Assembly: GCF_026571515.1 (NCBI RefSeq)
Contig: NW_026861694.1
Location: 186,001 to 250,000 of the forward strand
Direction: 5' to 3'
Length of the DNA stretch: 64,000 nt
DNA from: Ruditapes philippinarum
Lineage: Eukaryota
Part shown: positions 8,004 through 63,664 of the stretch, piece by piece
Position numbering within the stretch: position 1 is the first letter of the stretch
Layout: every line of letters begins with the position of its first letter
The notes under the pieces: model-generated
What the model saw: the letters and a program-made list of their open reading frames with translations, nothing else
The model's database searches: none
What the model was told of the DNA's origin: nothing
Position numbers and translations under genes: made by a program

Positions 8004-10878
8004 CAGGGCTGGGAATCAAAACTGCGTCGTATCCTACAAAATGTAAACAAACGCCGCCATCTTGGAACGAAAAATGTATGTTTTTGTTTATAACTCTTTT
8101 TGTTGGAAATGATTGAAAACCAGATATATGTATTAACACGCTACACTATTTTCCGCTTCGTTCGGTATATGTTGCTTGCACAACTATTTTGTAAAACAAA
8201 AGTTATAGCGAACTTGCAACTCGAAGCGGAGCAGAATTTTTATGAAAATGTGTGGATACGACGCAGTTCATATTGCATTTTCTATCGTTTTTTCCTTCAA
8301 ATTAATTATATATTTGTTTCAGAGTTCACCATAAACTTCAAAGCATAATTTTGCATCATTTACTAAAATTTCATTAAAAAGAGATGTTTATTTTCCAAGA
8401 TAATAATGGTTTTTACGAAATGATACGACGCAGTTGAAAATAAAATATGATACGACGCAGTTGTATTTTCATTGCAGTCTGCATATTGGATAAACTATTT
8501 AAATTATGTGCTAGGCATGCTAATAACGTCCAACAACATTTCTTGTTTACAACTTAAGTCAAAAGCAGAGGTCACGAAATGGTTCCATAAAAATGGAAAT
8601 GTAATACAATTCTATTAGGTCGCATTTTAGTACCTATCATAAGCATCTACAAATTCCGAAAAGCTGTATCAAATGCAATATACATTGAAACACGTGATCG
8701 CACACCCATATGATAACATGTTCCAGTTTTGCCTTAGTGTGCTTCTAAAATTGTTGCCGTGGGTTTGAAATTGGAGTGATAACAATTTTTCATACAAAAT
8801 TCAATATTCCAGTGTACCTCTCATGGACCCTGTATTAATCAGGAATGACCTTTTAAGAAAAAAGAGAAATAATTACTATTTTTGAAAAGGTCTCTTGCTA
8901 TCGGAAGAGAGCTATGCGCTAATTGCATGCTTACCTTTGTTACTTGTAATTAGCAATAATTTCCGTCCATTCCGTTATTACTTATGTCTTTTACGTGCCG
9001 ATTTTATTGTATTCATTTTCTTAATAATCGGTGAGAACAGATGAGCTTTATTATTTGAAACTGAACATTTAATTTTTTAAAATCATATTATAAATGGTAA
9101 GGCTACAATATATTTTTGCAAGTAGGTTATGCGTTCAGTTTAGTCATTTTATGTCTGCTCCGCGGAACTTTGCCGCTGATTTTGTCGTATTGCATTTCTT
9201 TATCGCCGATAAGGAAAGGTCTACGGAATGTATTTTCTATATTTGCACTAAAATATTATTTTTCTCCAATAAAAAAACTTTAAATTTTCAAAATCGAGTT
9301 ACATATGATACAACTACAAATCATTTTGTAAAGAAGGTGTCCGTTTTGCAAAGGTATTTTACGCTGTGTACCGATAAATTTGATACAGATATAGGCAGAC
9401 ATGATCTTTCAACAGTATTGAAAAAGTTTTCACAATATTGAACAGAAAATTTATGTCAGATTATCGCATCGAATTTTCAACAGGCTAGAGACATGGCATT
9501 TTAACATACCTTCATACTAAAGTGTGACTTTTATTTGATAATGAATTGCTTGAAAACCTACACAAAAGTTTTTAGAAAATGACTTCACAGAGGATTACCC
9601 CCTGTTTACATTGAAAATTTCTCTGCTAGTCATACCGAAATAAGAAATGTAAATGTTATTCTCTTTATAAATAATTAAAATATTTATAATCTTAAAACTT
9701 CATGCCAGAAGTTAATAAAAAGCTGCTTAGATGTACAGCTGACGTTAACAAATTTTGTTGAAAAAACAAATCAGACAGGTGTGTCCGACCGAGGCCGAGC
9801 TGTTTATGTTTACCGAATTCAAATCACTTGAACTGAACTGCTATGAATTCGAAAACCACCAGGGACTTTTTATTCTTTTGTGTGGAAAACCTATCAAGCT
9901 AGTTTAAAAATGTCGATCGGTTCTCTGCAGGTGCAACATTTTGCCTGAAATAATGCACAAAGACGCACCTGAGGTCCTCGCCCCTAGTAAAGCTTATGTG
10001 TAGAGTGAAAGTTTGAAAACAAACAACAAAAAAGCAGTCATTACCATAAACATGCAGAACCACAGTTAACTTAGAGCGTAGCTAGCCAAAATGAATTCAA
10101 GTTAATAGATTTCTACAATATTTTTGCGAAAAAAATTAGGGATAATATTGAACATACAGGAAAATATAAGAAATTATTTCAGATATTATGATCAATTAGG
10201 TAACATGTTCATGTTTAACTGAAAAGTAGCTTCCGCAATGTAAACTTTCAAATTCAATGTTATATTGGACATGACACAATGTATTCTAAATAATCAAAAG
10301 CAACAGAACATTGCTATACACCGCAAATGATCTGGGTTTTTTAGTTTGCGCAAGTGATTATTCCATAAAATAGAAATATATTGCCAAAATTATCCCTGTT
10401 TAAAAGACTGCCAAAATTGCAACTGCGTCGTATCATATTTTATTTTCAACTGCGTCGTATCATTTCGTTAAAATCATTATTTTCTTAGAAAATAAACATC
10501 TCTTTTTAATGAAATTTTAGTAAATGATGCAAAATTATATTTCGAAGTTTATGGTGAACTCTAAAACAAATATATAATTGATTTGAAGGAAAAACGATAG
10601 ATAAAGCAATATGAACTGCGTCGTATCCACACATTTTCATAAAAATTCTGCCCCGCTTCGAGTTGCAAGTTCGCTATAACTTTTGTTTTACAAAATAGTT
10701 GTGCAAGCAACATATACCGAACGAAGCGGAAAATAGTGTAGCGTGTTAATACATATATCTGGTTTTCAGTCATTTCCAACAAAAAAAGTTATTAACAAAA
10801 ACATACATTTTTCGTTCCAAGATGGCGGCGTTTGTTTACATTTTGTAGGATACGACGCAGTTTTGATTCCCAGCCCTG
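8004..10878. mobile_element. Non-autonomous DNA transposon, ~460-bp TIRs, CAGGG ends, 5-bp TSD GTTAT
   Basis: 8004-8463 is the near-perfect reverse complement of 10420-10878. gttat flanks both ends (7999-8003, 10879-10883). gatacgacgcagtt occurs four times per TIR. No internal transposase ORF. Confidence 0.92.
9785..9995 (+). mobile_element. Degenerate tRNA-derived SINE (V-domain/RUDI-like)
   Basis: tRNA-like head (ggccgag...ttcaaatcactt...ttcgaa), then ccagggact...gcctgaaataatgcac...cacctgaggtc...gtaaagct. Related copies lie at 54.9, 56.5 and 63.7 kb. Confidence 0.6.
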
Positions 10879-11864: not shown

Positions 11865-12140
11865 TTTAAGATGGTCGGTCAACACCCCATTATTGTAACA
11901 GCTGTGTTTGTGGTACTTAAAGGTATTTCTATTAGATTTTTAATAATGTTTCCTCACACATAAGGTTAGGATATGTTGCCTGCTTTGTCTCTTTAGACAA
12001 CGTATCTGTAATAAGCAGGCTTCATAGCCTCTGAATGAATCCCTTTCTAAATTCCGTTTTATTTAGTTGCGTCCATTGTTTATACGTTTATGTCACACAC
12101 ATTTTACCTGCAGACCATACGCCGTCTTCCATGGAGTGTC
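11865..12140 (+). mobile_element. Structured non-coding repeat family L, diverged fragment
   Basis: ttaggatatgttgcctgc...gcaggcttcata...tttatttagtt...gaccatacgccg matches the reverse complement of ~58320-58600. Confidence 0.8.
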
Positions 12141-12424
12141 GACATGCCAACACAAAATCAAATATAAAGGTACATCTACCATCTATAATTGAACACTCGG
12201 GTTTAATTTCAAAATTAAGAGTAACAGTACTTTGTTTTTTTTCTTAACTTCTTTATATTGTTTTGAACAACATTTTGTTGAAATAAAGAACTCATATTCA
12301 TGTATTCAATAATTGTTACAGTTTTGTAACTGGAGAAGTGGTGGTGATACATAACCATTATTGGTGCTTAATACCTGAATACATCTTTGTTTAAACTGAT
12401 TACAGCCTGGGTTGCTAATAATAA

Positions 12425-12708
12425 CACTCCGCTTTTCTTGGAATGGCACTAATGTGTCACATTGAAGGTTCCCTGATAACCGCCATATGAACACATCTGC
12501 GGATGTTTCCAAATTCACAATTTTACTATTTTCATGTTTAAATTTTGAATTCTGCTTAAGCCGGTGCTAGGGGCCGTGGACGGTAGTTTGCATTTGAAAG
12601 TACCGTCCATGAACAGGCTCAATCAAACCAAGCCTGCAACATTGTCCATTTTGTCGTTTTGGGCATTCTTTAGGGATTTAGTTTAGGGATGCAGTTTCTC
12701 TCTATTTT
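12425..12708 (+). mobile_element. Family L, 3' half
   Basis: Reverse complement of 58073-58340; ends ...tttagggat...tctatttt. Confidence 0.9.
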
Positions 12709-12737
12709 AGCAAACTATCTAAATGATTAATAAAGAA

Positions 12738-12973
12738 TTCTGGAAACAAAGTGATCCCTCGGAAGCATTAATCACAACAAAATAACATAAGAATTGCAGA
12801 CTCGGTTTGATTGAGTCTGTATGGGATAATTTAAGTGCAAAATCCTCACGCCTCTAGACCGGCTGAGCGGTACTCATTCTCACTTAAGTGTTGCATCAAT
12901 GATCCGAAGGCCAGAAAATATAACAACACTGAAGTGAAGTACGGGGCAACTTTTTACGGCCGCCACACGGCAC
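12738..12973 (-). mobile_element. Structured non-coding repeat family S (short relative of L)
   Basis: Shares the hairpin cagactcggtttgattgagtctg, the ctag(c)accggct motif and a 35-nt terminal motif with L. Paralogs at 27356 and 35228. Confidence 0.8.
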
Positions 12974-13049
12974 TTGACACCATCTACTAACATCATCTTC
13001 GCTAAATTTTGAATAAATTTTCTTTTGAGGTACAGGTAATAGAATCTTT

Positions 13050-14789: not shown

Positions 14790-14860
14790 CCGTAGTGAGC
14801 ACATGGTAATAATGTGTCACATAAACAATGATAACCGCCGTATGAATGAATTTTGCAAAA
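14790..14860 (+). mobile_element. Family L short fragment
   Basis: atgtgtcacat...atgataaccgccgtatgaa matches the L sense strand. Confidence 0.55.
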
Positions 14861-14908: not shown

Positions 14909-14924
14909 AAGAAGAAGCAAACTT

Positions 14925-15100
14925 GAAGATGCTGCACGATCGGTTTGATTAAACCTGTCCATGGACAGTGCTGGGAGGTGCAAGTTACCGTCAGCGCCCG
15001 CCCTAGCACAGGTTTAAGCAGAATTCAACCTTTAAACATAACTTATAGTGATTTTTTTAATTTAGAATTATTCGGGGAGGTGTCCATACGGGGGTTAGCA
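14925..15100 (-). mobile_element. Family L diverged fragment
   Basis: tcggtttgatt..cctgtccatggacagt..gtgcaagttaccgtc..ccctagcacaggtttaagcagaattcaac matches 58130-58290. Confidence 0.8.
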
Positions 15101-18100: not shown

Positions 18101-21100
18101 ATCCGTTTAGGAAGACATTTTTTATTGGTAACAGTGATTGAATAGAAAAAACACATGAATACTTAATCAAGAAGACAAATGCTTGAAAGAAAGACCTGAT
18201 ATACAATTAAAGTTTGGCAAGTTTTATTATAAGGCAGGAATATAAAAACAACTTCGTATGTACAGGAAAGCAGCGACGAAATGACGCTGAAAATAATTAC
18301 GTCGTGATTTGTTGATAAATATCGCCGCTGTTTTCCTGTACATGCGAAGTTGTTATAAATAGTTTCATCAACATTATATAAAATCGTCGTCGATGTCAAT
18401 AAAATCGACGAAGGTATTTTCCCATGTATTCATATAGGGAAAATAATAACCGTGCGGATGTGTACTATGGCTTTCCATTGTATACAATATATATAGCTTG
18501 GATATATTCACATATGTTTATTATAAATCGAAGTTTACTAAGTAATTTGCATTTAAAGTCATTTGGCGCCGCTCCGTTTCTTGTAATTTGCAGTATCCTT
18601 TACATTCATGTCTTAAAGGAACGCCTTTATCAATTGCGTGTGTTTTGGTTTTGTTGTTAAATGAATCAAACTCGTGTCTCTGATGGAAAAGTTAATTAAC
18701 TATGCAAACAGCATATGTTTGTTTCATTCCGTCATAACACGTGGATTATTAGTTAAATTATTTATTATAATTACATGTTTAATAAATAGACAAATTGAAT
18801 ATATTTTTGTTATAATACAAAAAATAATGATAACACAATTTCGGTTCGTAAAAAAGTAATTTCCAGGAAATGAATGAATAATGCATAATATTCATTTCGA
18901 CTTACTTGAACTATAAAGTATATAATTTGACTTGACAGTAATAATAATAAATCGACGAATAATTAAAAAAAAACAACAATTATCATAATTTATTTATTAG
19001 CGTCATTAACAATTAATCGAAATTGTCATTGCATGTTCGAATCATATTTGTCTCATTTTGCCCAAAATCGTCATATTAATATCTAAGGTACTGAAAAAAC
19101 AAAGTTATCTAAATTCAACAAAAAACTAAACTTTTTTTCCATTTACCAGGAATCAGCTTCTTAATATCCCTATAAACGCAACAGAGTTGTGTGTGCATTC
19201 CGAAGCATATTACGGGTTACTTCTTTTTATTAACTTCAAAATATGTGTGCGCGTACAATGTGTAATTGATACTTTATTTTATTTGTGATGGAGATCTATT
19301 TTTCATATAAAATCGAATATTATTTATTTAAATTAACTTTCAATTTAATTCAAAAGAATTTGATTTAATTATATACGGCGTCATATATATTCACATATTG
19401 TTTGCTTGTTTATATATCTAATAGTGGACAATACTGTCAAAGAGCATCCTGGCCTGTTAATTTAACTGTTACTTTGAATTGTTTTTTGTTCTTTTGGATG
19501 CGTTTTCCTTGGTATGTCAATAATTCATGTTGACTAGTCTGGTTCTTTTTGTATATCATCTTTTGAAAGCGATGCCAATTTGTGGATGCATTACGTGTTC
19601 GTCGTTTTATATTTTCTTAACCTTGTTGTATTAACAATGAAGTACATTTGCTATTTTAACTAGTTTCGATCTTGTAACTGAATTTTTAACAAGCCAAACT
19701 TGATAATTTAGGAGACTTTCTTTCTCCTGAGAATGTCTTCAAGACAAAAATGTTGCATGTTACCAATTAAATGCCAATAGCTTTAGACGTATTCAAATCA
19801 CCGCCTACAGACATATCACTATTTCTATGGAACTGTTACTTTACACGCGATAAATACTATTTTTGACATACTTGTACTCGCAGTTAACAATTGAATATCC
19901 ACACATTCAAACAAGAAATAATTTACTTTCTTATAACTTGTTTGTTTGGTTTGCGTTTACCATGCACCCCGACAATTTAGCTCATATTGTGCGAAACAGG
20001 AAAGATGCTTCTAATTAGTACGATGCAATGTTAGATATAATAATGTATAAACAACAATATACCGGTAGTTTTTGTGAGAAAGGCAAAGTTCTGTCCTTTG
20101 TCTAGAAGCTTGCCTTTCATCGCAGTTGTGTCTACATAAACAACATAATTAAAACAAATAAGGACTGCCACATACGTACAAACATTCTCTAAGTTTTGTG
20201 AATTTAATGACAATTTTAATTAGCAAACGGAAGAAATAATTTCGGACAGGTATTTTACTAAAAGTAACTAAATGCTCATTTTTATTGAAAATTGTACATT
20301 TTTAAGATAATAAGCCATATATCTATTGCAACAGATTAACCAGTTAAAGTAATATAATCACTATCAGATGGCTTTTTATTTGGTACTTAACCTAGCTGAT
20401 TCCTCTCCGGTAAATTATCTAAAATATCACTGAAAAAGATTCCAACAATTCATTATATTTATTTCTGCAGTTCCATAAATAATTATTGAAAAGTTATATC
20501 AAAACATGCACGTAGCATTACAATGATCATTAATATCCGTTTGTTGGTATAAGTATTAATAAATTAAACAATAATTATTAATAATTTACTGTTATAATGA
20601 TGCATATCATAAATGCGAAATTATCAAGAATCTGACAGAACATGAATAGTTGATGATATATTAACAAGTTCCTAGATTTTCTATGTTACAACAACAGCAA
20701 CAACAAAATAATAAAAGATGAATGAAAACAAAAAATAAAAAAAAATAAATAAATGAATAAATAAATTAAAAGAAAAGTGAGAAAAAAGAGAATCCAAAAG
20801 AACGGAAAAACAAACCACCACCAAAGAAACAAACAGCAAAGAAAACCGGCAAAATGGAAAATGTTGTTCATGGGCGGTAATTATAACTCCAAGAAAGTGT
20901 CCACGTCATACAAAGCCACATTTGAATTTGAAAACGAGAAAATCAAGCACTGAGTATAGATTTACTTTATTCGTTCTCGATAGGAAATATTTCTCGTATT
21001 ATGAACGTAAAATACCAGGCTAACGTTTCGGTGAGACATAGAGCTAATAATTTTTTAATCAGAGGCGAGGTCTTGGCTTTTATTGAGTTTACTTTAAAGA

Positions 21101-26580: not shown

Positions 26581-27355
26581 ATATTCTCCAGCAATTTTGA
26601 GTTTTTACGTTGTTTATGCATACAATTTGTTAGAAATTATCTGCTTAAAAATATCGCCAAGCGTTTTATCACATAAACTTGAAAAAGTTATCAAGATCAG
26701 TTCTACTGTATTAACCAAACTATAAATACCTTTAAAATACGCACTATAAATATAGCTTGCCAGTTCGGTAATTCATTATATAGTTTGCCAAGGAAAGATA
26801 ATATAAAAATTATGAGGTCTTTGTTTTCAAGATTGCATCCGAACTTTTAACAAAATCCACCACAGTTCTGGAACAAACATAGCACTGACCCACAATAACA
26901 ATGCATTATTGATCAAAGTTCATGACACAATATCACAATACAAAGATAATGAGTTAAAGAAAATAATTGACAGCGTTTCAAAAATTTCGGAGTTCCGACT
27001 TCAATTGTTGTGATGCTTACATTGCGTTTGCTTGTTGATAGAACCAAATCTTGAATTCTTGTGAAATATGTATTATAATCTACAAATATCTTTATTCAAA
27101 ATAGATAATACTTAAGTTAATCAAAATTACTTGTGTACTTCAAACATAATTATAGACATGTTTGACATTCAGATCCCCTATGCATGATTTAAGATACGTT
27201 AGCTCAACCGACTGGTCCTCAGATAGAGTGCGAGCTCCCACTTATAAATAAAACAACGGTACTTGTGTGTTACAACAATACAGAAAGTCTTGCCCGGAAC
27301 TTACTCAAGTCGTTATTTGTTTTTTGGTCCTTGACAATTCAAAAAAAAAAGAAGA

Positions 27356-27512
27356 AAAAGTTATCCTCGGCAGCATTAAAAACAACAAATTACACTCGGT
27401 TTGAATGTGTCTGTACATGAGGGACAATAAAACGTGCATCATCCTTCTTGTCTCAGCACCGACTTGAGAGACACTGAACTTACTGTATTCAACGATCTCG
27501 AATGACCAGAAT
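27356..27512 (-). mobile_element. Family S, diverged copy
   Basis: aaagttatcctcggcagcatt..actcggtttga..tctgtacat..gtgca..agcaccgacttgag..gatctcgaatgaccagaa is collinear with the 35228 copy. Confidence 0.7.
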
Positions 27513-29882: not shown

Positions 29883-29940
29883 AAATAGATAACCACAGAA
29901 TCCCTAAAGAAAGCCCAACACGGCAAAATTGAAAATGTTG
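29883..29940 (-). mobile_element. Family L, 58-bp terminal-only copy
   Basis: Near-identical to 58073-58130, then stops abruptly. Confidence 0.9.
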
Positions 29941-32900: not shown

Positions 32901-35227
32901 GCTTCACACGATTCCTGTATCAAACAGATGGAGCCATCAAGTGCAATATTACACGATATATGCACAGCATAAAAAAGGAATGCTTACACGCCATAAGACT
33001 TCAAATATTTCGTTAATAAACCAAAGAACGTCAGTGAAAACTATTTCTACGCTCATTGTATGTATTCAACATAATCACTTTTATCAATTCATTTTTATAA
33101 GCATGTTAGAATTGAAATAGATATCAATTTGACTTGCAATATAGTATGATATTACACGGTTTATCTTTTTAATGCTTTATAATAAATCACTCAGTCCTAT
33201 CAGCCTTCGCGAATATATACCTAGTACGCATTTAAACACAATCTGTGCATTATTCTGAAATCTATTTCCTTAAAAGCAACATGTACAAAAAGTTCTAACT
33301 GCTCCTAAATGCGCGATTGACTTATACATTTGCTGGCATATAATATGTAGTGCAAAAAGGGCTTTTACATCATAAACGTAAATGATAATCATTAAGGTTA
33401 ATCATTAATGCCGCATAAATTTAATCTTGAAAACCGAAATACAATTTGATATTGTTGGAAGTAAAGTAACATTAATCACGAGGGGAGATCAACATGGTGT
33501 TAACCTGGTAAGTACGTCATCCTTCCAACATCAATAAGTGCAGCGTAAGAGAATCGTGTTTATTTTGACAAGCTTAAGTAGCTTTGATTGAAATACCATT
33601 GCAGATTGCAGTTATAGATTACTTTTCAAAACATCGTTGCAGGTAATGGATAGGAAAATAGGTATAAAAACACGCTGAAGAGTACTTGATAGAAAATACA
33701 GAACTGATGATACAGCATCAATTTAGGTACTTGCGTATCGCAATTCAAATTTGCTTAAACTTTTAGTTATTTACCCGATCCAGAAAAGTAAGTTTTGAAA
33801 ACCTACGCGCCGGCCGAATCCGACCGACAGGAAGATAAAGCAACACAACGCGGTACCAGTGATGGAATAATCAGACACTGCCAATAAAGCCGTCGTTTTG
33901 TCCGGCATTACGAATGTTTTCCAACACATTTTTAGTCCCAATCAAAGTTGTTGACATTTAATTTTTCAATTGCCATCAATTCTCGTTATTTTTTTTCCTC
34001 GAGATGTTTTCTTTCTTATGTGTTTTGATTTTCCGGGATAGTTTGTTTAAATATCTTTTAATGAATAAGGCAACATGTTGATATGCATATGGGTTATACA
34101 AACGGCATAAAATTTCAGTTCTATTGATTGTTCAGTCAACCAGATTTTATGTATACATCTTGAAATGAATTTTGATATCAATTGGTTTCTTTAAGATATA
34201 TTATGCTTAAATTTGATATGTTTTAAAATCTATACACTACAGGTAATGGCAGTATGAATACATAGTGACATTAAAAAACTGGAAAGTTTTTATGAGAATA
34301 GACCAAACTTGACAAGATATAGGGTATGCATCTTCCCAAAAATAGTTTATACATTTACTTATTCAAATTAGACGTTATTCAGGGGGTGAATTTAGTAGAT
34401 TCCAATACATTTCTGCAATTAAAGTATTTTAGTAAAAGATGGGCTAGTATTTCTTTAAAACGACATAAAATTAAGCATATTATGTATAACATTAAGTGTT
34501 AACATTACCTTAGGTCATATTATTACTCCTTTAACATAAATTATATACGCATATACCATACAAATTGATAAACATTTCAAACAACACAGTAATTTAAAAG
34601 CAAAATAAGCAGTAAATTATTAACTTATTGTATCTACTCATCGATTAATTTATTCATTATCCAGATACTAATTAAATTTCTAATTACCAAATTTCTTCAG
34701 AGATCTATATTTGGTTACATTGTCAAACAATTACGTTCAAATGGCTATTTAATAATATAAATGATTAAATATTATTTAATGGCAAGTAGTTATACTCTAC
34801 AGTGTCTGCGTTTGTTCAATAGTATTTAGTCATTTCTGAATTAGCTAAGATGTTAAGGTAAATAGATAAATCATTTCTAAGTAATATACTAAACCCCAAA
34901 AGCACCTAATAATTCTTTTAACCAAACGTAACCGATTGACGCGATAAGGAATTAATATATCACTTCGTCTTTCAAACTAAAAAAAGACAAACGAGGGTCA
35001 AATGAAAATGATCAAATTGTCCGCAGCTTGCTATCAGAACAATCTTACGTTATTTTTGTTGATTTTTCCTACTGTTTGTTTAGGTGTTGTAATATTTTGT
35101 TACAATAATTATTGTTTGCAAAATTGTAACTTCCTTAGATTTCATAAATGTGTAAGAATTAGATCTAGGCATTTAAATTAATCAAATTGTATTGCCTTTT
35201 TGTTTCTATACAAAACATATACAAAAA

Positions 35228-35453
35228 TCTGGAAACAAAGTGATCCTTCGGAAGCATTAATCACAACAAAATTACATGATCATTGCAGACTCGGTTTGAT
35301 TGAGTCTGTACATAAGGGATTATAATGAATAAGTGCAGCATCTCTCCCGTCCCCTAGCATCGGCTTGAGCAGTACTCAATTCTCAATACTTAACAGTGCT
35401 GACATCAATGATCCCGAAGGACCAGAAAAATGAAAAATATAACAACACTGAAG
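35228..35453 (-). mobile_element. Family S copy
   Basis: Collinear with 12738-12934. Confidence 0.85.
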
Positions 35454-40734: not shown

Positions 40735-40957
40735 ACTTATTGATGTAGAACTCTTGAATTACCTATTGACAACAAGACATTGGAAAAGAAAGAATGTAGA
40801 ATCAAATTCATGAATCAAACATGATATTTGATTGCCAAAAAACGAAACATATACATACATGTAAAAAACGTAACAATACAACAGTATCAGTCGGTATATA
40901 CACAGCAAAGAATACGAAAGCACAAAATAATAATGTTAACTTTACTTAACGTTGTGC

Positions 40958-41765
40958 CAAATCGTATCCGCATTGGAATCAGACAAACGGTGTTTAAACG
41001 GTTGGCTCAGGAAAATGGTGTTTTTATACAATTTATATACAGAAACGACCATTCCATGCGGTAATGTTCCTGACATATTTCTTGGGTTTGAAATTTGGGC
41101 TTTGTATTCTGCAAGAAAGACCCTCCAATGTTGTATAAATTTGCATTGGAATCAGACAAACGTTGTTTAAATGATTGGCTCTGGGAAATTGTGTATTTTC
41201 GAAAATTTATACCATCTACATACAGAAAGAACAAGTCGACGGTCCAAAAACGACCATGCCATGCAGAAATGTCCTATTTCTTCGGAAAGCTTGGGTTAGG
41301 CTTTGGGCCTTATCTTGTGCACAGAAGACTCTCTAAACGTGTACAAAATCGAACCTGCATTGAAATAAGACAAATGGTGTTTAAACGGTTGGTTAAGGAA
41401 AATGGTTTTTTTTATATACAATTCATTTACAGAAAGAACAAATGGCCGGATGAAAACGACCATGCCACGCGGATATCTCCTGGACATATTACTTGGGCAG
41501 AGCTTTGGGTCTTATTTCATGCACAGAAGACCCTCCTTACTTGCACAAAATCGAATCCGCATTGGAATCAGGCAAATGGTGTTTAAACGGTTGGCTCAGG
41601 AAAATGGTGTTTTTTATACAATTTATATAGTACAGAAAGAACAAATCGCCGGAACGTAAAACGACCATGCCACGCGGAAATCTCCTGGACATAATACTTG
41701 GGTAAGAGCAGCTTTGGGTCTTATTTTGTGCATTGAAGACCCTCCAAGCTTATTCAAAATCGATT
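40958..41765. repeat. Diverged tandem repeat, ~200-bp unit, 4 copies
   Basis: gcattg(g)aa motif at 40970, 41143, 41357 and 41559. Confidence 0.9.
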
Positions 41766-46697: not shown

Positions 46698-49600
46698 TAC
46701 ATTAAAGCAATTTAAATGGACATTGATTATCTCATGATATGTAACTGTATCAATGGTCGAATGCAATGCAATATTTTACTGAATAAAGATTTAAATTTAT
46801 AATATTTATACTGATATAATATTTAATTGCAATTATTGTCCTGCATCTTTTACATATTTCTTTAACTTCAAAAAATTTGACGACAAATTTGAATTTACAG
46901 CAAACATTATATATTTTAAATAATGTCGACTTACAAACGTATTTAGGTATAGTTTTCCCTTATTAAATACTTAATATTACAAATTTCTTAACATTTAATG
47001 ACGGACTACAGGCATAAGGAAAAAAGTATTTAAATTACAACTGTAAAACTTTTACATTAAGAAATAACGCAATTTAAGATATAAAATCAAAAAGTTATTC
47101 TCAAATTATCTATCTTCTCAATGGTTTTAAGTATAATTTGTTTGTGTTGTAACAATATATACAATATAATAGTAATACCATATGACGAATAGATGCAATA
47201 CGTTAAAATTTTGTTAATGGCTTTGGCAATTGGCATAATTATAAGAAATTAAAATGATTTTCTTTCCAATGTCATACCATGGAAATGGATTTGTTTGATT
47301 TATAATTTTAAAGTCATTCGTGGCAATTGCATAGGTTTGGAAGTTTCATATAAGGATGCTTCAAGATCAAACATTTGAATTCATTAAAGATGGTTTACTA
47401 ACATGTTTGCCGCGAAGGTATGATTGTATTTCCTTAGCAATCGAATTGTATATTTATTGTATTTAATATGAAACAAACAATTTGTTTTTGTTTTTTTTTT
47501 CCTAATCTCATTTATTATAAACAAAAAACACGTTTTTGCAACATTAACCAACTCGCGAATTGATTTTCAATACGTACCAGTGGCAGGTAATGAAGTTGCT
47601 GACATAGTTCTATAAGTATTATAAGGATCTTACACCGGCTGCTGGTACAGATTGATATATCTAACTTGAGGGTTAAGAGGCTAAGTCGAGTTTCCTCTAA
47701 ATAGTTACCCGAGTAATAGATATTCCCGTCTGTTACGAAGCTGGTGTTTTATTTTATTTCTTGCATACATGCATATTAACTATCAATCATATTTCGGAAA
47801 AGAAATTATGAAAATTGATATTCTCATGTCGCACATTTTTTTAGTAGCGTAAGAATTTACAGCCTCATTCGTAACGGCAAAATGACGTAATTTTAAAACG
47901 CAGTTCATTTCATAAAATGCGCGCGGTAATGTCGTCATTTCAAGCACGAAACTTCTCTTACAAGGGGGTGGGTGTAAGACAGGTTTTTCTAGCACCGGTG
48001 TAAACGGTAGATAATCCTGTTTGATATGCAAAATATTAATGTCTAAAAAAGACACTTGTCCCACGTTGCTTAGTGTTTAAAATTGTTCGGTATAACAATT
48101 GTCTTAAATGTGTGCCATTTATTTCTGAGAGTATGATTTGTTATTTTAAACAGTTTATTCACCTTAATGACAACTTGCACCGTTCTACTTTGAAAATAAT
48201 AATGTTATTATCAATTTGTTTGTAATAGCCTTCGCACTAGAACACATAAAGAATAATTTATGGAATGCGATAACGATATCTAAGATTATTAATCATTTCC
48301 TATTGAACCTTAGATTATTTATTTAAAAGAATGCTTTTTATTTATTTGACTTGTGTTCGATGTGTTTACATGTCATAGCCGGAATGCAAGTCGTACTTTA
48401 TGATTATTGTTATATAATTAAAGTCAGTATTCGATGAAAAAAAATCTGAGTTGAGGTTAACAAGCGAATGATTGTTAATAATTAAAACTGAAATTATTTG
48501 AAAATAAATATTTATTTTTAAAATGATGTGATATGAGTGTATCGAAAGTTAAAATACAGACAAAGACATGTTCAATATTGAAATAAAATAAAAAAAAAAG
48601 GTTCAATCTATTATATTACTACAATGAAAGACGATATAATGTAGTAAGTATTAAGATCTTCGATTAAAAAAGCAAAAAATGAAAAGATAATGGACTCAAA
48701 ACATGGTTTCTTTTATGTAAGACCATTGGAAATATTGATATTTTTTTTCCAAAAATGTTCCCTTAATGCGTGATGTGTTTGTTACAAGTTAATCGTTCAT
48801 ATAATCTCAAAGAATCTACAGTATTGGTTAAATGTCTTATCCCCTTTTACTTAATAATTATAAATTATTAGTCTTATTTTTCTAAATGTTCAATATGTTT
48901 AGAAATCGTACGTGCTTGGGACGTTATACCAAAATAACTAAGTAATTTATGCCAGTTTAACAAAACTGAACTCACTTAAAAATAGGTAAACTTAAATAAG
49001 AAAGCGTATTACAATATGTGGTATTACATCGCTTGTTGTTAATTGAACTAAAAATGGCGACGTCAACATATCTGGCAAAATACGGCGTGAAGAACAAAAT
49101 GGCCATGTCAACGCGATGAAGTATATATAAGAACGTTCGAATGTTCCCTTGATCTTCTCTAACAACAGTCACTTATATTTCACCGGTAAATATCACTAAT
49201 AGTATCTGACATGTTGTCACTGTCGATTGAGTGTGTCATATTGTTCGCCATGATTCACTTTAACAACGGTAAGTGTCTTTAGCATCAATGACAGTGTTTT
49301 TAGATAAATACCTTGGTAGCGTGGCGAAAAATGTCTAACTTGCAAAATATTTTCAGCAGCGTTGTAGAAAGTTTTCTTGAAACACAAGCAAATATGTGAA
49401 TCCGAAAAGTGAGACATCAGAAATAGAAATATAATTTTGTTTATAACGTGTGCTGGCATGTATACTATGAACAAGTTGAAACAAACCAAGCTTGGAACAT
49501 TTTGTACGTTTGTTTGAAAGCAATGCCTTCAAGTTTATGATGAAAAATAATTATATTAGGTATGAAAGATATCTAGAATAAATAAACAAAAGATAAAAAA

Positions 49601-55432: not shown

Positions 55433-55985
55433 AAATAGAGAAAAACAAAATCCCTAAAGAAAGTCCAACACAACAAAATTGAAAATGTTGCAGGCTCGGT
55501 TTGATTGAGCCTGTTCATGGACGGTACTGGAAAGTGCAAGTTACCGTCCACGCCCCTAGCACCGGCTTAAGCAGAATTCAACATTTAACACGAACATGGT
55601 GAAATTTTGAATTTAGAAACATCCGCAGATGTGTTCATACGGCGGTTATCATGGAACCTTCAATGTCACACAGTAGTGCCATTCCATGAAAAGCGGCGTA
55701 TGGTCCCCAAGTAAAAGAATGCTATTACCCTAAACGAGAAAACAATGGGCGGAACTAAATAAAATAGAATTTTGAAAGGTGATCTGAGGTTATGAAGCCT
55801 GCATATCACAGATAAGACGTCAAAAGACAAATTTAAAAAGAAGGCAACATATCCTAAGGGTGATTATACAGTATTCAAGTAGGAATACTGGAACCAACCA
55901 AGTTGAAAATTGCCAAATAGAAGAAACTTAAAGTACAACATAACACGTATACACAACAATAATGTCGTGCTTAACGATCTTCAGG
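55433..55985 (-). mobile_element. Family L, ~550-bp copy
   Basis: Collinear and highly similar to 58073-58615, with the same fixed terminus. Confidence 0.92.
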
Positions 55986-56540: not shown

Positions 56541-56566
56541 ATATGTTTTAGCTTCGAGAGAGAATA

Positions 56567-57378
56567 ACTGGTTCCTGATCACCGACATTATTAATCCGGC
56601 CAAGTTGGTTCCTGATCACCGACATTATTCATCCGGCCAAGTTGGTCCCTGATCACCGACATTATTCATCCGGCCAAGTTGGTCCCTGATCACCGACATT
56701 ATTCATCCGGCCAAGTTGATCCCTGATCACATCACCGACATTATTCATCCCGCCAAGTTGGTTCCTGATCACCGACATTATTCATCCGGCCAAGTTGGTC
56801 CCTGATCACCGACATTTTTCATCCGGCCAAGTAGGTTCCTGATCACCGACATTATTCATCCGGCCAAATTGGTCCCTGATCTTCGACATTATTCATCGGG
56901 CCAAGTTGGTCACTGATCTTTGACATGATTCATCCGACCAAGTCCTGATCACCGATATTTTTCATCCGGCCAAGTAGGTTCCTGATCACCAACATTATTC
57001 ATCCGGCCAAATTGGTCCCTGATCTTCGACATTATTCATCGGGCCAAAAAATATGATAAACAAAATCAACAAGGAAAGGCGGCGTTCAATGAACGCAACC
57101 CCCACATGACCCAGCAACAAGAATGGTTACTGATCTTCGACATTATTCATCCGACCAAGTCCTGATCACCGACATTATTCATCCGGCCAAGTTGGTCCCT
57201 GATCTTCGACATTATTCATCCCGCAAAGTTGGTTCCTGATCTTCGACATTATTCATGCGTCCAAGTTGTTTCCTGATCTTCGACATGATTCATCCGGCCA
57301 AGTCCTAATCACCGACATTATTCATCCGGCAAAGTTGGTTCCTGATCACCGACATTATTTATCAGGCCAAGTTGGTCT
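56567..57378. repeat. 37-bp minisatellite, ~20 copies
   Basis: Unit gttggttcctgatcaccgacattattcatccggccaa, head-to-tail with no spacers. Confidence 0.95.
57048..57123 (-). mobile_element. 3' tip of the Naiad-like element inserted in the minisatellite
   Basis: Matches 61062-61126. Confidence 0.85.
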
Positions 57379-57807
57379 TTCTATTTTATATATTCGGTAA
57401 TTAATATACAGTATTGAAAAACATATCTTAACGATCAATGAGCAATCTGAATCTGTGTTGTGTTCATTCTTGCATAATTATCTATTTTCATATTTTAATT
57501 GGTTTTCCACAGTAAATTGATTTTCCATTAAAAGACGTCATTCATAATACAGTAGTTTATTCTAATATGTGCTTATAAGACATCATTTTAGAGCAATTGT
57601 ATTTTTATTATTGGCATCCCTATTACAGATGACGATTTCACCAGTCTTTTGCACACAAAATAATAATCTATGAGCAAATTATTTACATCTGAACGAGATT
57701 GTAACGATTGATTCATATATATATAATCTAGTCTCTTTTAAGTGTGCAGATCCGCATTTGGTTTATACAGAATTTATCATATTTCGATTGTGTAACAAGC
57801 TATAACC

Positions 57808-57972
57808 TAATAGACACACTTTCGAATCCGTTCCTGGAGCCAACCAGTACTGAGTAATGAGTGTAAAGTTTCGTGCTCAAGGTAACAACGACTTGCCCCT
57901 AACGGGGTTTGAACCCATGCGGCTAGTAATCATTTTACTTGTCCGAAGCGCTAAGCACTCGACAATGCTGCC
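57808..57972 (-). mobile_element. tRNA-derived CORE-type SINE
   Basis: Minus strand: A-box-like tgtcgagtg, B box ggttcaaacc, then CORE-like ccttgagcacgaaactttacactcattactcagta. Confidence 0.7.
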
Positions 57973-58072
57973 ACATCATACGAACGTTTACATTGCATGA
58001 AATAAATGGTTACTGTTCATATAATTGTTGGACCTATAATACTATTAAGAAATCAGCATTTGTTACCAATTC

Positions 58073-59256
58073 AAATAGATAAATACAGAATCCCTAAAGA
58101 AAGCCCAACACGGCAAAATTGAAAATGTTGCAGGCTCGGTTTGATTGAGCCTGTTCATGGACGGTACTGGAAAGTGCAAGTTACCCTCCACGCCCTCTAG
58201 CACCGGCTTAAGCAGAATTCAACATTTAAACGTGAAATAGTAAATTTTTGAATTTAGAAACATCCGCAGATGTGTTCATACGGCGGTTATCATAGAACCT
58301 TCAATGTGACACTTACGTGCCATTCCATGAAAAGCGGCGTATGGTCCCCAAGTAATAAAAAGCGTGTGCCCTAAACGAGAAAACAATGGGCGGAACTAAA
58401 TAAAATGGAATTTTGGAAGGGGATCAGAGGTTATGAAGCCTGCGTATCACAGATAAGACGTCAAAAGACAAATTTAAAAAGCAGGCAACATATCCTAAGG
58501 GTGATTCAACATTATTCAAGTAGGAATATTGGAACCACCCAACTAGAAAATGCCGAAAAGTTGAAACTAAAAATACCACAAGCACAACAATAATGTCGTG
58601 CTGAACGATCTTCAAGGATCGAAAATATAACATCATTGATTAAATGTACGGGGAGACTTTTTACAGCCGCCACACGGCACAAATAACACGGATGTGATCA
58701 TAAAATAGATAAATACAGAATCCCTAAAGAAAGCCCAACACGGCAAAATTGAAAATGTTGCAGGCTCGGTTTGATTGAGCCTGTTCATGGACGGTACTGG
58801 AAAGTGCAAGTTACCCTCCACGCCCTCTAGCACCGGCTTAAGCAGAATTCAACATTTAAACGTGAAATAGTAAATTTTTGAATTTAGAAACATCCGCAGA
58901 TGTGTTCATACGGCGGTTATCATAGAACCTTCAATGTGACACTTACGTGCCATTCCATGAAAAGCGGCGTATGGTCCCCAAGTAATAAAAAGCGTGTGCC
59001 CTAAACGAGAAAACAATGGGCGGAACTAAATAAAATGGAATTTTGGAAGGGGATCAGAGGTTATGAAGCCTGCGTATCACAGATAAGACGTCAAAAGACA
59101 AATTTAAAAAGCAGGCAACATATCCTAAGGGTGATTCAACATTATTCAAGTAGGAATATTGGAACCACCCAACTAGAAAATGCCGAAAAGTTGAAACTAA
59201 AAATACCACAAGCACAACAATAATGTCGTGCTGAACGATCTTCAAGGATCGAAAAT
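58073..59256 (-). mobile_element. Family L partial tandem: full 630-bp unit (58073-58702) plus 554-bp truncated unit (58703-59256)
   Basis: Exact 630-bp period; I found no differences over the shared 554 bp. The junction coincides with the family terminus. Confidence 0.92.
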
Positions 59257-60699
59257 TTTAATACTTATTACATGTATGTCGTTGTTTCCCAAATTTGTGA
59301 TGATAAAACTAAATCGCTAAGTAATTCATCAAGTCTTAATAAAATAGCTTTTTACAAGACAAATGCAGTTGTAATGATTGAATAGCTAGACTGTTACTTT
59401 GATTGAAGTTTAATCAAACATTTAGTTTCTGTCTAGACAGACTCATCACCTAGATGGAAGCTGGTAGGTTATCAATTGTTTTGAACAATTGTCAATAATT
59501 CCTTTTGTATCGCATTAAGCAACATTGAAGTTTTGAATGTTATTTAAGTAGACGTATAAGTAAAGAATTATTTACATGTTGTAATTGCATGCACTTTAGT
59601 AACTTGAGTAAAACTTTAGTAAGATAGCTAGATACATGAATACAATAAAATTAATCTAAAAATTCCTACCGGATTTGAAGCAACCCCAAAGAGGGCGTTA
59701 TGGTTCAAAGTCGGCGAAAATAACCAAAATGCCAGGAGACCTGCGCAAGGAATTGAAAATTTAAAAGGTGCACAGGTAAACCTTTTGTATAAAAGACATG
59801 GTTACTGTTAATGTAATTGTTGAATCTACAATACTACTAAGATTTACACAATTCCAGATAGTTACCTCGTGATACTGGCATTTTACTGCAAATATTATGT
59901 ATGTTGTTAATAATTTTATGGGATAACAGCCAAATACACAATATTGTTTTTTCAAAAACAAATACAAGAACTGCAGCAATGAAACTTTAAGTACAACCTC
60001 TGTCGTTCACTTTGCAAAGTGATTTTGCGTTCTTCCTTATTAACTATATTTCATATGATCATGCAACTTCTAATAACATACAATCCCAAATCATAAAATA
60101 TTGCGAGAAAGGACAGCGGAGACAGAGTTATATGCTAACGTTTGGATTTATAGGCTTCCTGTAAGAACAATATTTCTATAACCGTAAAAAAGCCGTAAAG
60201 TACTGTTTCATTAGAGTGCTCAAGAAATGCTGTTTCAGTCAGATGTCATGGATATTTTATGCAAACAGCTGCAACAATTCAATCAATGTCATCATTGTCT
60301 GCGCAAAAGACATATGAAAAAGGAAAGTGCATACGAAATATTTTGCATCGGACATGACCGAGGGTGTGTCAGGGTCTTGAGAACCATAAAGCAGGCCAAG
60401 ATAAAACTGCAATCAAAATACTTCAAGAACTTTTGAAAGACGATGTATGCATTAGTTCCACCAACTTTATAGACCTTGTTATTATCAATATATTTGAAGG
60501 TGGCATTATGCCCGCCAAAGTGCAAATTGTAAGTCTACTGGAAAAGTAATTATAACTTTACCTTTTTGTTATAATTGTTTCCAGCTCTCTATATTCTTAC
60601 AATAAACAATACTAAAAGTCATCTTGTTCGCGCCAAAATCAACGAGGGCTTGGTCAGCTAACTCAATACCCCGACTTAGATGTGTTCATCTGATTGGTC

Positions 60700-61061: not shown

Positions 61062-61959
61062 AAAATATGATAAACAAGATCAACAAGGAAAGGCGGCGCA
61101 ACCCCCATATGACCCAGCAACAAGAACCAATGGCAAGGAGCCCAGGCGGACCCCAAACATAAAAAGGACAGGGTAAAGACAGGTTAATCATTAAATGATA
61201 AATAATTTGTAACTGATTAGGAATTCAAAGAAAATAATAATAGGCCCACAAAGGGGAAGGGGACAGGAGACCGGGGGAAGGGGGTTAATCAAAGAAATAA
61301 AAACTAGAGGCAATGGGGAAGATACTTACCGTAGACGAGAAAACAACAAGGGACACAAGCAAAAGTGTCACCAAAACAGTATGAAACAACATAGACATAC
61401 ATCTGAGGAACACAGTGGGGCGCCGCCTTGGAACGGTCAGCAGCATATAGATGACTGCTGGGGAGTTTAAACCGGTTATTGGTGCACCAAACCTCGCTCT
61501 TAGCCCCACCATGTTTCTATAAACGAGACAGTGTAAATAAAATGAATCCCCGCCAAGTGAAATTCTAACAGTTGTCATGGTTACAAAAGGTTAAATTAGT
61601 AAAACACTAAAATGATCATGTAGAAACATATAAAAGTAAACCCAATGACCATAACAAAAGTACTCAATGTCCTAAAGGAAGACAGAGCAACAAGAAAATC
61701 ACCTACAAGGGCCCGACGAAGCAAGGCAGAAGACGAACAGTAATACAATTCAGTCCCAAAGGGCTTTACGAACTATCCATCATAGAGTCTCCCACTTGGT
61801 CCTTCAGATGCAATCAAAAGAGGAAAGCTAGTGTCCAACTGTAAAAGGGTTGAACACTAAAAATGCAGTATGTCTTAAAATAGTAGGGTCATAACCTCTT
61901 TTAATAAAACGTTTAATGATTTTAGTAAAAACAGCAGAAAAATTACCATGACCCAAAAT
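61062..61959 (-). mobile_element. 5'-truncated Naiad-like Penelope retroelement (RT C-terminus plus full 3' UTR)
   Basis: From 61959 downward: ILGHGNFSAVFTKIIKRFIKRGYDPTILRHTAFLVFNPFTVGH, then frameshifted ..AFLFDCI..GDSMMDSS*. The 3' terminus is shared with the copies at 16150 and 57048. Confidence 0.7.
61735..61790 (-). promoter_or_regulatory. Degenerate type-II SECIS-like stem-loop
   Basis: ATGAT-ggatagttcgt-AAA-gccc.ttt.ggga-c-tgaattgta; the 3' GA of the quartet is lost. Confidence 0.4.
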
Positions 61960-63664
61960 CTGTCTAGGTGTTTACCTATTAAACAAATAAATTCTCATTT
62001 ATTGTCAGATGAATTGTAATAATAATGAAATGATAGAATCAATAGCATAGACGGAGTGACCTTATTTTTTATTAAATAAGTGAATTTTATATATTTAAAT
62101 AATTATATTTAATCACAAGTAAACAGAATTGAGTATTTTAAGGTGAATGTAACAATGATTATTGCATTGAAAACAGTTCTTTTATGTGTATTTGATTGTA
62201 AAACATTATGTTCGTACAGTATATTTTTATTCATGACACAATTTGATAATATTTTACGAGCATAAAATGGATAAAAACTTAACACCGTCTTATTAAGCTA
62301 TAATTCTAAATCGACTTTGTCAGCATTTACAGTAAAGCTTGCTATAAACTATTATTCTTGTACCATGATTATATTCTGCAGATGAAATAGAATCACTCAA
62401 AAGTGTTTCATACTGGAATAAGTGGACTCTTTTCAAGGACTGTTACTTAAAGCATCTAAAGCGAACTGAAGTCTTTTGGGTGAAATTATATGAGACCAAA
62501 TGAATCAATTTTGTCCAGAGTTATTAAAGAGCTTTAATGATTTTCTGTCAAATTTGACGTTGTACATTTGTTTATACTGTAACACAGTTCAAGGCTTTTA
62601 GTCAATCATCCAAAACAAATAAGAAAATGTTTGACTCTTTGACAGATGTTTACGAAGCATGTCTGTGGTCTGCGTTTAGAATCTAACTTGGTTACAAACA
62701 GAATATTTGTTAGCACCACTATCGGTTTAGTTTGTTATCTTTGGTGAGAATGTAATTTTAGAAATGAAGAAACAATTACGATTTCTTAGATTTGTTATAA
62801 TAGTTAATTCTTATAAAGGAGTGAACTATTCGTAGCTAAATTTAAATGTTCTTCTGCTTAATTTAAAAATCATAGCACTCTCTGCCCTCTCTTGAAAATA
62901 CTCAACGATATCTTAAACGAGCCCTCGCCTCATTTTAAAGCTAGTGTACAAATGCTATTTATCTCTTACTATGGTATTTTTTGATTTCCTCGAAATGTTA
63001 ATGACCAAACACTTTATTTTGAAATATTTAAATTAATGCAAAAAACTGCGAACTAAAATGTTGGTGTTTAAATCAAATAACTGCAGTGTTTTAACAGTTA
63101 TTGTTTATAACAAAAATTAACAATGCGATAATTTCACCAAGTTTTATACCCAATTTTAAAGTGTATGCACGATGAATCAAAATAAGTCATTGTATTGTAT
63201 ATATGGTCTTTTTGATATTACGTGTCTTAAGACATGTAACCTACTTTGTAGATATTCATAATTGTTATGAAAGGTATTCTAAATTCTCTCCTACACAGAT
63301 GTTGATAACACCATTTTATAACGAGCGTGCTTATGTTTAAATTCAGATACAAAACTGTGTGATTTAAATTCATATCTCTAGACACCGTTTTATCCGAAGT
63401 TCATGTCATAAATAAAATTCATAGCAACAATCTTGCGCACAGAATATATACAGCAACAAATAATGGGAAAATAACTCTTTTAGTGGGCTGATAGCGCCAA
63501 ATATGTGCATAGCTATTATACATAACCTGCATAACAAACAAAGGAATATTGTAACGAATAATTATTGTTATAACCGGAGAACTTCAAGAGGTGTTAAAAT
63601 ATATTATTAATACTTTAAAAACGCTTATTTTTTAAAAAAAATTATTTCATTTTCAAATTCCTAT

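Follow-up and report, generated by a model that had tools for sequence, protein, structure and literature searches.

A hammerhead-free, non-coding, probable retroposon family with a conserved folded core, possibly copied from circular minus-strand RNA by Penelope-type machinery

In the retrozyme model, as set out in section 9 of PMC7761336, a circular RNA template is copied into cDNA of more than unit length by a Penelope-type helper. Among the Penelope-like elements themselves, the Naiads described in PMC8557442 prefer (TA)n repeats as their target. Animal retrozymes have been found by hammerhead search, so circle-forming retroposons without a hammerhead would be missed by design. Here we describe a repeat family in a 64-kb stretch of DNA (the window, meaning the whole stretch analysed) that is 31% GC, has the look of animal DNA and holds no recognised genes. 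Our preferred reading, to which we give a probability of about 0.55, is that the family is a non-autonomous, retrozyme-like retroposon copied from circular minus-strand RNA by Penelope-type machinery. Its parts differ in strength: a retroposon of minus-strand RNA is very probable and a Penelope-type helper is probable, while a covalent RNA circle as the template is modestly favoured.

The full unit, L, occupies 58073..58702, with minus as the probable RNA sense, and its length of 630 bp is set by a joint leading from 58702 back to 58073 in sequencing runs and by a related locus, L006. Directly behind it, at 58703..59256 (minus), stands a 5'-truncated second copy of 0.88 unit. The first 554 bp of the unit are thereby repeated without difference (58073-58626 against 58703-59256, 554/554 identical, mismatch starting at 59257), which confirms the partial tandem that the initial annotation placed at 58073..59256. 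That annotation counted about 11 copies or fragments in all, a figure matched by nhmmer with eight L pieces and three copies of a short form, S, in which about 400 nt are missing while the 5' domain, the long-range helix and both hairpins (A and B) remain. Beyond the tandem pair (nhmmer starts 58074 and 58704), the L pieces comprise an older copy, 89% identical and ending near unit position 545 (55433..55983, minus; start 55434); a copy of unit 1-270 in opposite orientation (12424..12707, plus; 12682-12424); a piece of unit 246-541 (11870..12141, plus; 12141-11870) that is probably the rest of this 12.4-kb copy, past an insertion; a decayed piece of unit 40-220 (14916..15100, minus) with an inverted piece of unit 203-251 close by at about 14802-14850 (the weak eighth match, 14850-14802, E 0.18); and a 58-bp stub of the fixed end (29883..29940, minus; 29884). 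S1 (12730..12975, minus; 12731) has the 5' domain, a long-range helix of other sequence and both hairpins, without the 400-nt middle; S2 (35222..35453, minus; 35224) lacks most of the 5' domain, and S3 (27345..27510, minus; 27357) is decayed. None of the three S copies is over-length.

Several further repeats were seen in the window. The fixed ends of an L copy and of S1 face each other across about 25 bp at 12707-12730, and a covariance model of the core gave two additional weak matches, 49424-49552 and 20827-20933, which are very decayed, probable copies. Just left of the tandem is a SINE-like piece (57790-57975), which we liken, as an assumption, to mollusc SINE bodies. An inverted pair, 8004-8480 and 10405-10878 (477 bp at 95.6%, separated by 1.9 kb; related pieces lie at 61255-61961), is possibly an element with long terminal inverted repeats, and three degenerate tandem arrays occupy 229-758, 40945-41763 and 56566-57377.

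Scanning metagenome contigs with the hairpin A pattern returned seven loci, five of them distinct (L002 and L003 are the same place, as are L006 and L007), which align locally with the element at 70-87% identity and are conserved at about 70-76% between the two genomes. The L006 unit, 76% identical over 562 aligned bases, is 598 bp long and is followed by 27 bp of its own start, a 1.05-unit insertion, so that unit length, fixed end and junction are common to a second genome. Elsewhere in L006 (4402-4719), the fixed end of one copy abuts unit position 477 of another, which suggests insertion into its own kind. In L003 (3337-3546) a copy is cut at unit 203 with an inverted 41-bp fixed-end piece just behind it, head-to-head; this piece scores 38 against a best of 33 in 1000 shuffles, at one locus only. 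Viral contigs gave no match to two element motifs and plasmids did not match the element; the single match among prokaryote genomes (L008) was rejected as a chance match inside a bacterial gene.

The element is non-coding and non-autonomous, as first annotated: no credible ORF was found and there is no codon periodicity. A selenoprotein or other coding origin was also rejected, since reading through TGA opened no ORF and codon bias was absent. The proposal that a Naiad-like reverse transcriptase (RT) in this genome possibly mobilises the family is not supported. None of the 145 window frames of at least 62 aa matches an RT or endonuclease family, and motif scans of the window were empty; ten short motifs searched exactly against a published consensus file of Naiad, Chlamys and Hydra elements gave chance matches only; no sequence shared with the family was seen in two 3' ends read by eye; and the flanks are AT-rich without being (TA)n (0/11 fixed-end flanks are TA repeats). 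It is the anatomy of the insertions by itself that would point to Penelope-type mobilisation. The same frames bear on the idea that the unit merely belongs to a longer autonomous element, as its 3' UTR or pseudo-LTR, or that the tandem is an assembly artefact. In two genomes and in four runs the unit is followed, past 58702, by its own start, and neither the 145 window frames nor the 30 longest of 98 frames at five related loci contain an RT; we consider that explanation extremely improbable.

Insertion anatomy is most regular at one end. Eight of 11 aligned copy ends from two genomes start exactly AAATAGA and one is off by one base, as expected of the fixed end originally described; the other two start AAATGA, and each of the 11 has its own flank. 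This end (58073..58089, minus; delimited by aligned copy ends and by loose contig ends in the DNA run X1) is U-rich in RNA sense and is likely the start point of reverse transcription. The far end of L varies, supporting a fixed 3' end with 5' truncation; there is no poly(A) in RNA sense and no target duplication at the four far ends examined. Among the loose-end piles listed for X1, 563 contigs end at 58073, 529 at 58087 and 334 at 58088, and none of the six best-supported is a far-end pile. The pile at 58087-58088 (863 contigs), 14-15 nt inside the fixed end, may reflect either a second start site or artefactual clipping where A-rich ends have diverged. Three copies (ending at 55983, 59256 and 11870) stop at unit 541-554, where the 5' arm of the long-range helix lies; reverse transcription may stall there, or the position may be a start site.

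Summed contig depth in X1, which does not equal copy number, climbs from 18-30 in the flank to 2.0-2.7 million at 58089-58157 and declines to about 0.7 million at 58618-58686, and from it we infer a family of thousands of copies or more. The depth gradient and the order of the tandem place the 3' side of the RNA at 58073, in agreement with the G-U asymmetry of the fold. The repeat starts AAAT and ends AAAT, and is 554 long in the window and 27 in L006; pseudo-LTR, 5' truncation and short tail are all present across these two insertions, so the Penelope-like character assigned to the tandem stands. A TRIM or LTR retrozyme was rejected, since the repeat is AAAT...AAAT and not TG...CA, there is no flank duplication, and the repeat length is 554 against 27 in L006.

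Rolling-circle DNA elements likewise insert without duplicating their target, have a single fixed end and form head-to-tail junctions, and a non-autonomous Helitron or Helentron with over-length copies derived from a DNA circle would fit these features too. Helitrons and Helentrons are marked, however, by TC...CTRR termini or subterminal repeats and by a fixed target dinucleotide. The 11 flanks share no fixed target base, and the unit has no TC start and no CTRR end with a near-terminal GC hairpin; moreover, its G-U pairs favour one RNA strand and it forms uniform loops in RNA libraries. We consider a DNA transposon of this kind highly improbable.

Fold energies and G-U pairs support the minus-strand structured RNA that had been proposed. 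Hairpin A (58131..58153, minus) has a near-invariant 9-nt loop and changes from G-C to A-U in S, exactly as claimed. For hairpin B (58158..58192, minus), in which both sides change in 7 of 10 pairs, the loop claimed to keep TGCA is invariant in 11/11 rows and the stem pairs fully in the copies at 55433 and 12.4 kb, whereas both tandem copies carry a mismatch at C58186. The loop tetramer, UGCA at 58175-58178, is self-complementary, which would allow a kissing dimer; another potential partner is the identical tetramer at the base of hairpin A. Across the two hairpins, both partners are substituted in 8 of 17 pairs and pairing holds in 90.7% of cells, a result reached by 0/500 shuffles, though the structure came from the same alignment, which spans about three lineages. 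This covariation is support, not proof.

The long-range helix joins a 3' arm at 58090..58111 (minus) to a 5' arm at 58597..58619 (minus), and 19/19 listed pairs form on the minus strand, six of them as G-U. By energy the duplex reaches -31.8 kcal/mol on minus against -17.7 on plus (z -6.7 relative to shuffled arms). The listed pairs were read by anchored pairing with the S3 row left out. The minus-strand preference that had been asserted holds in L, the 55433 copy, S1 and S2, in all of which the helix is far stronger on that strand (z between -5.1 in S1 and -7.8 in S2), whereas neither S3 (z -1.5) nor L006 (z -1.6) shows a significant helix. In L006, nonetheless, the inner helix pairs at 9/9 positions with one C-G to G-C change, but four other 3' arms give its 5' arm a better energy than its own partner does. 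It was further correct that S closes its ends by a helix of different sequence, L and S arms pairing best within their own family: duplexes between L arms reach -28 to -35 kcal/mol, weakening to -20 to -22 when the 3' arm of an L 5' arm comes from S1 or S2, whereas S1 and S2 5' arms reach -27 to -34 with their own kind and -13 to -16 with L arms. The unit as a whole folds at z -4.7 on minus and -3.9 on plus (20 shuffles). Folded as circles (25 shuffles), the window unit gives z -4.3 on minus versus -3.8 on plus, and L006 -3.6 versus -1.0. In a circle or a tandem the long helix can also close locally, around a 105-nt junction region.

The 5' domain (58627..58702, minus), present once in the tandem, consists of a small hairpin, a YGUAR motif and a CCC-bearing loop, and all three are retained in L, S1 and L006 (3/3 copies reaching the domain) by a descriptor that was written after these copies had been seen. 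The layout resembles that of the SRP Alu domain, which we treat as a weak lead and the domain as a candidate only; hairpin A may resemble helix 8. The Alu domain, as characterised in PMC2905702 and PMC11581171, is defined by UGUNR together with helices 3 and 4. Such a fold could place the family among SINE-like derivatives of 7SL (SRP) RNA, in which an Alu-like 5' fold recruits SRP9/14 and a LINE or Penelope RT, with tandems made by template jumping. Hairpin, YGUAR, CCC loop, a long 5'-3' helix and the U-rich end recur in all three copies that reach the domain, S is about the size of 7SL, and 6 of 10 bases match the 7SL box A as printed in PMC7245038. Against this, four focused Rfam scans gave no match to the SRP family at E up to 10, a model of four bacterial Alu domains missed the 5' domain motif, and the element's core model matched none of four bacterial large SRP loci, all of these being tests on bacterial SRP models and Rfam. 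In addition, the RNA-sense strand carries 12 runs of at least four U, which would stop Pol III and therefore disfavour Pol III transcription; the annotated lack of Pol III boxes agrees, with 0 tRNA genes and a B-box-like string that is not kept in L006 or S1. We regard shared ancestry with 7SL RNA as unlikely, and this SINE-like reading of the family as highly unlikely.

To return to the circular-RNA reading, the evidence that bears on it most directly comes from sequencing runs. At least half of the element's words are contained in 20 of 24 listed runs, the share being 0.92-0.95 in 14 DNA or unlabelled runs and 0.68-0.71 in six RNA runs from five studies. Contigs were aligned to the unit for the DNA run X1 (69,668 contigs) and the RNA runs X15, X18 and X20, with RNA runs X16, X17 and X19 left out, and the 58702-to-58073 joint appears in all four (nine contigs in X1), hence in 3/3 RNA runs aligned. 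X15 holds one contig of 660 nt, equal to 630 plus a 30-nt overlap, and in X18 the junction is crossed by a contig of 599 nt (depth 124) with one bubble. In these two of the three RNA runs, then, assembly of the unit yields a uniform closed loop of 630 nt; X20 shows a genomic spread of 669 contigs and one junction contig at depth 93. The X15 and X18 contigs carry the same seven differences from the window copy, which are the majority alleles. Among 40 of 128 rows listed, the DNA minor allele reaches at least 15% at 14 sites, and at these both alleles are present at two in X18 and at none in X15. The break in the X15 contig lies 3 nt from the fixed end, possibly at a branch formed by linear ends. 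Zero depth over the 53-bp flank in the RNA runs is given no weight. A closed loop in RNA assemblies fits a circle and does not prove one: contigs reveal neither covalent closure nor strand nor level, assemblers discard tips and bubbles, and carry-over DNA of a high-copy family may collapse to a majority loop.

A second line of evidence comes from the tandem itself. The window copy differs from the majority at seven sites, and all seven are common to both tandem copies; five of these window alleles are rare, at most 0.5, 1.6, 1.7, 3.5 and 6.7% of DNA depth. Because mutations arising after insertion would not be shared, one template, a monomer already carrying the rare alleles, was probably copied 1.88 times, either in a rolling mode or through an exact template jump, at this site or in a recent source copy. 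Gene conversion would be a less probable origin of the shared rare alleles.

Many of these observations could also be produced by a linear RNA. A non-autonomous Penelope-like element might be transcribed from a start in the upstream partial copy, read through the junction, begin its cDNA internally and form tandems by template jumps between sibling RNAs. A terminal redundancy of at least 30 nt, or a tandem-array transcript, yields the same closed contig, and the unit 541-554 ends of three copies could be the start site; no ribozyme was found, either. Among described elements, the Poseidon RT as reported in PMC11167929 starts inside its template and needs no hammerhead cleavage in vitro, and, according to the account in PMC8557442, Naiads and most Chlamys are without hammerheads and non-autonomous Chlamys form partial tandems. 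What a linear RNA explains less readily is the shared rare alleles, for which a monomer would have to be copied twice with an exact junction, and the absence of partly aligned contigs, and thus of any flanks seen, in X15 and X18. On balance we judge a linear template rather unlikely.

If circular RNA is the template, as we prefer, a copy longer than one unit would first be transcribed by read-through, and a monomer would then be released and ligated, by an unrecognised ribozyme or by a host nuclease and an RtcB-type ligase. A helper protein might be bound by the conserved core, that is, the long-range helix and hairpins A and B, which are all that S keeps; the helper would nick AT-rich DNA, and cDNA would begin at the U-rich site, 58073. 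Most copies would stop early, and some would roll past the junction, rebuilding an over-length copy that can be transcribed.

Our searches for a ribozyme that might serve the second step agree with the annotated lack of a canonical hammerhead: a core with at most one mismatch and a 3-bp stem II has no match in four sequences on both strands, and a looser search gave three core-like strings, none common to both genomes. Because the hammerhead test failed, we do not file this unit as a retrozyme. Rfam gave one match in the whole window, by chance, and four focused scans gave sub-threshold matches only; no ribozyme conserved in both genomes was found. HDV-like ribozymes are nested double pseudoknots with a catalytic C in J4/2. 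A weak candidate of this layout at 58248..58325 (minus), absent from S, fits two of five copies (those at 55433 and 12.4 kb) by a descriptor that also fits 6/1000 shuffles and four other window sites. Its stems are kept in the second genome, where the catalytic C is missing in 2/2 copies, and it overlaps a rival stem that covaries, with changes on both sides. An HDV-like ribozyme here is very unlikely. More speculatively, the family may stand for an animal retroposon lineage with a hammerhead-free 630-nt circle, made by a self-cleaving motif of a new class or by host cutting and ligation, its head perhaps mimicking the SRP Alu domain and docking the circle on ribosomes that are making the Penelope-type helper; we hold this as a tentative and rather unlikely extension.

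A full-text search with element 16-mers found no paper, and no title in the literature on non-autonomous Penelope-like elements and retrozymes concerns this element, although it may carry a name in Dfam or Repbase; its motifs are also absent from 12 of the 33 supplements of PMC10294476 and three of the four of PMC4758252, the ones searched. Among described systems, animal non-LTR retrozymes, as portrayed in PMC7229834, PMC7761336 and 10.64898/2026.07.22.740005, are similar in being non-coding, low-GC, self-paired units found as monomers and head-to-tail repeats. The present family differs from them in that it has no type I hammerhead, is longer (630 nt, where retrozymes measure about 170-400 nt), has one end that is sharply fixed, and comes in long and short forms sharing a covarying core, and its conservation of about 70-76% between two genomes sets it apart from elements described as species-specific. 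SINE1 elements (Alu, B1 and the hagfish SINE1-1_EBu treated in PMC7245038) offer a possible likeness in an Alu-domain-like 5' fold closed by a long helix; what separates the family from them is that no significant similarity to 7SL was detected, that it has neither a poly(A) nor a LINE tail, and that it carries many runs of U and over-length tandems.

Closer in anatomy are the non-autonomous Chlamys and Naiad elements presented in PMC8557442, for example MRC1, with 5' truncation, a pseudo-LTR tandem, a short extension, an inverted truncated partner and no canonical hammerhead. Elements of the MRC1 type generally resemble an autonomous family at the 3' end, as stated there, whereas no such family was found here; the family also lacks their microsatellite target, and circular RNA is not reported for them in the relevant parts of that paper. 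Poseidon PAc, on the evidence given in PMC11167929, is similar in its AT-rich target and fixed internal cDNA starts, and our two loose-end piles 14-15 nt apart recall its two sites, although PAc is autonomous and has a hammerhead. Set beside these systems, the family offers an RNA that is small, conserved and covarying and that exists naturally in a minimal form, S, well placed for seeking a new cleavage or circularisation step, and its fixed start and identical over-length copies make testable whether Penelope-type tandems arise by rolling around a circle or by template jumps, while bearing also on how hammerhead-less Penelope-like elements process their RNA.
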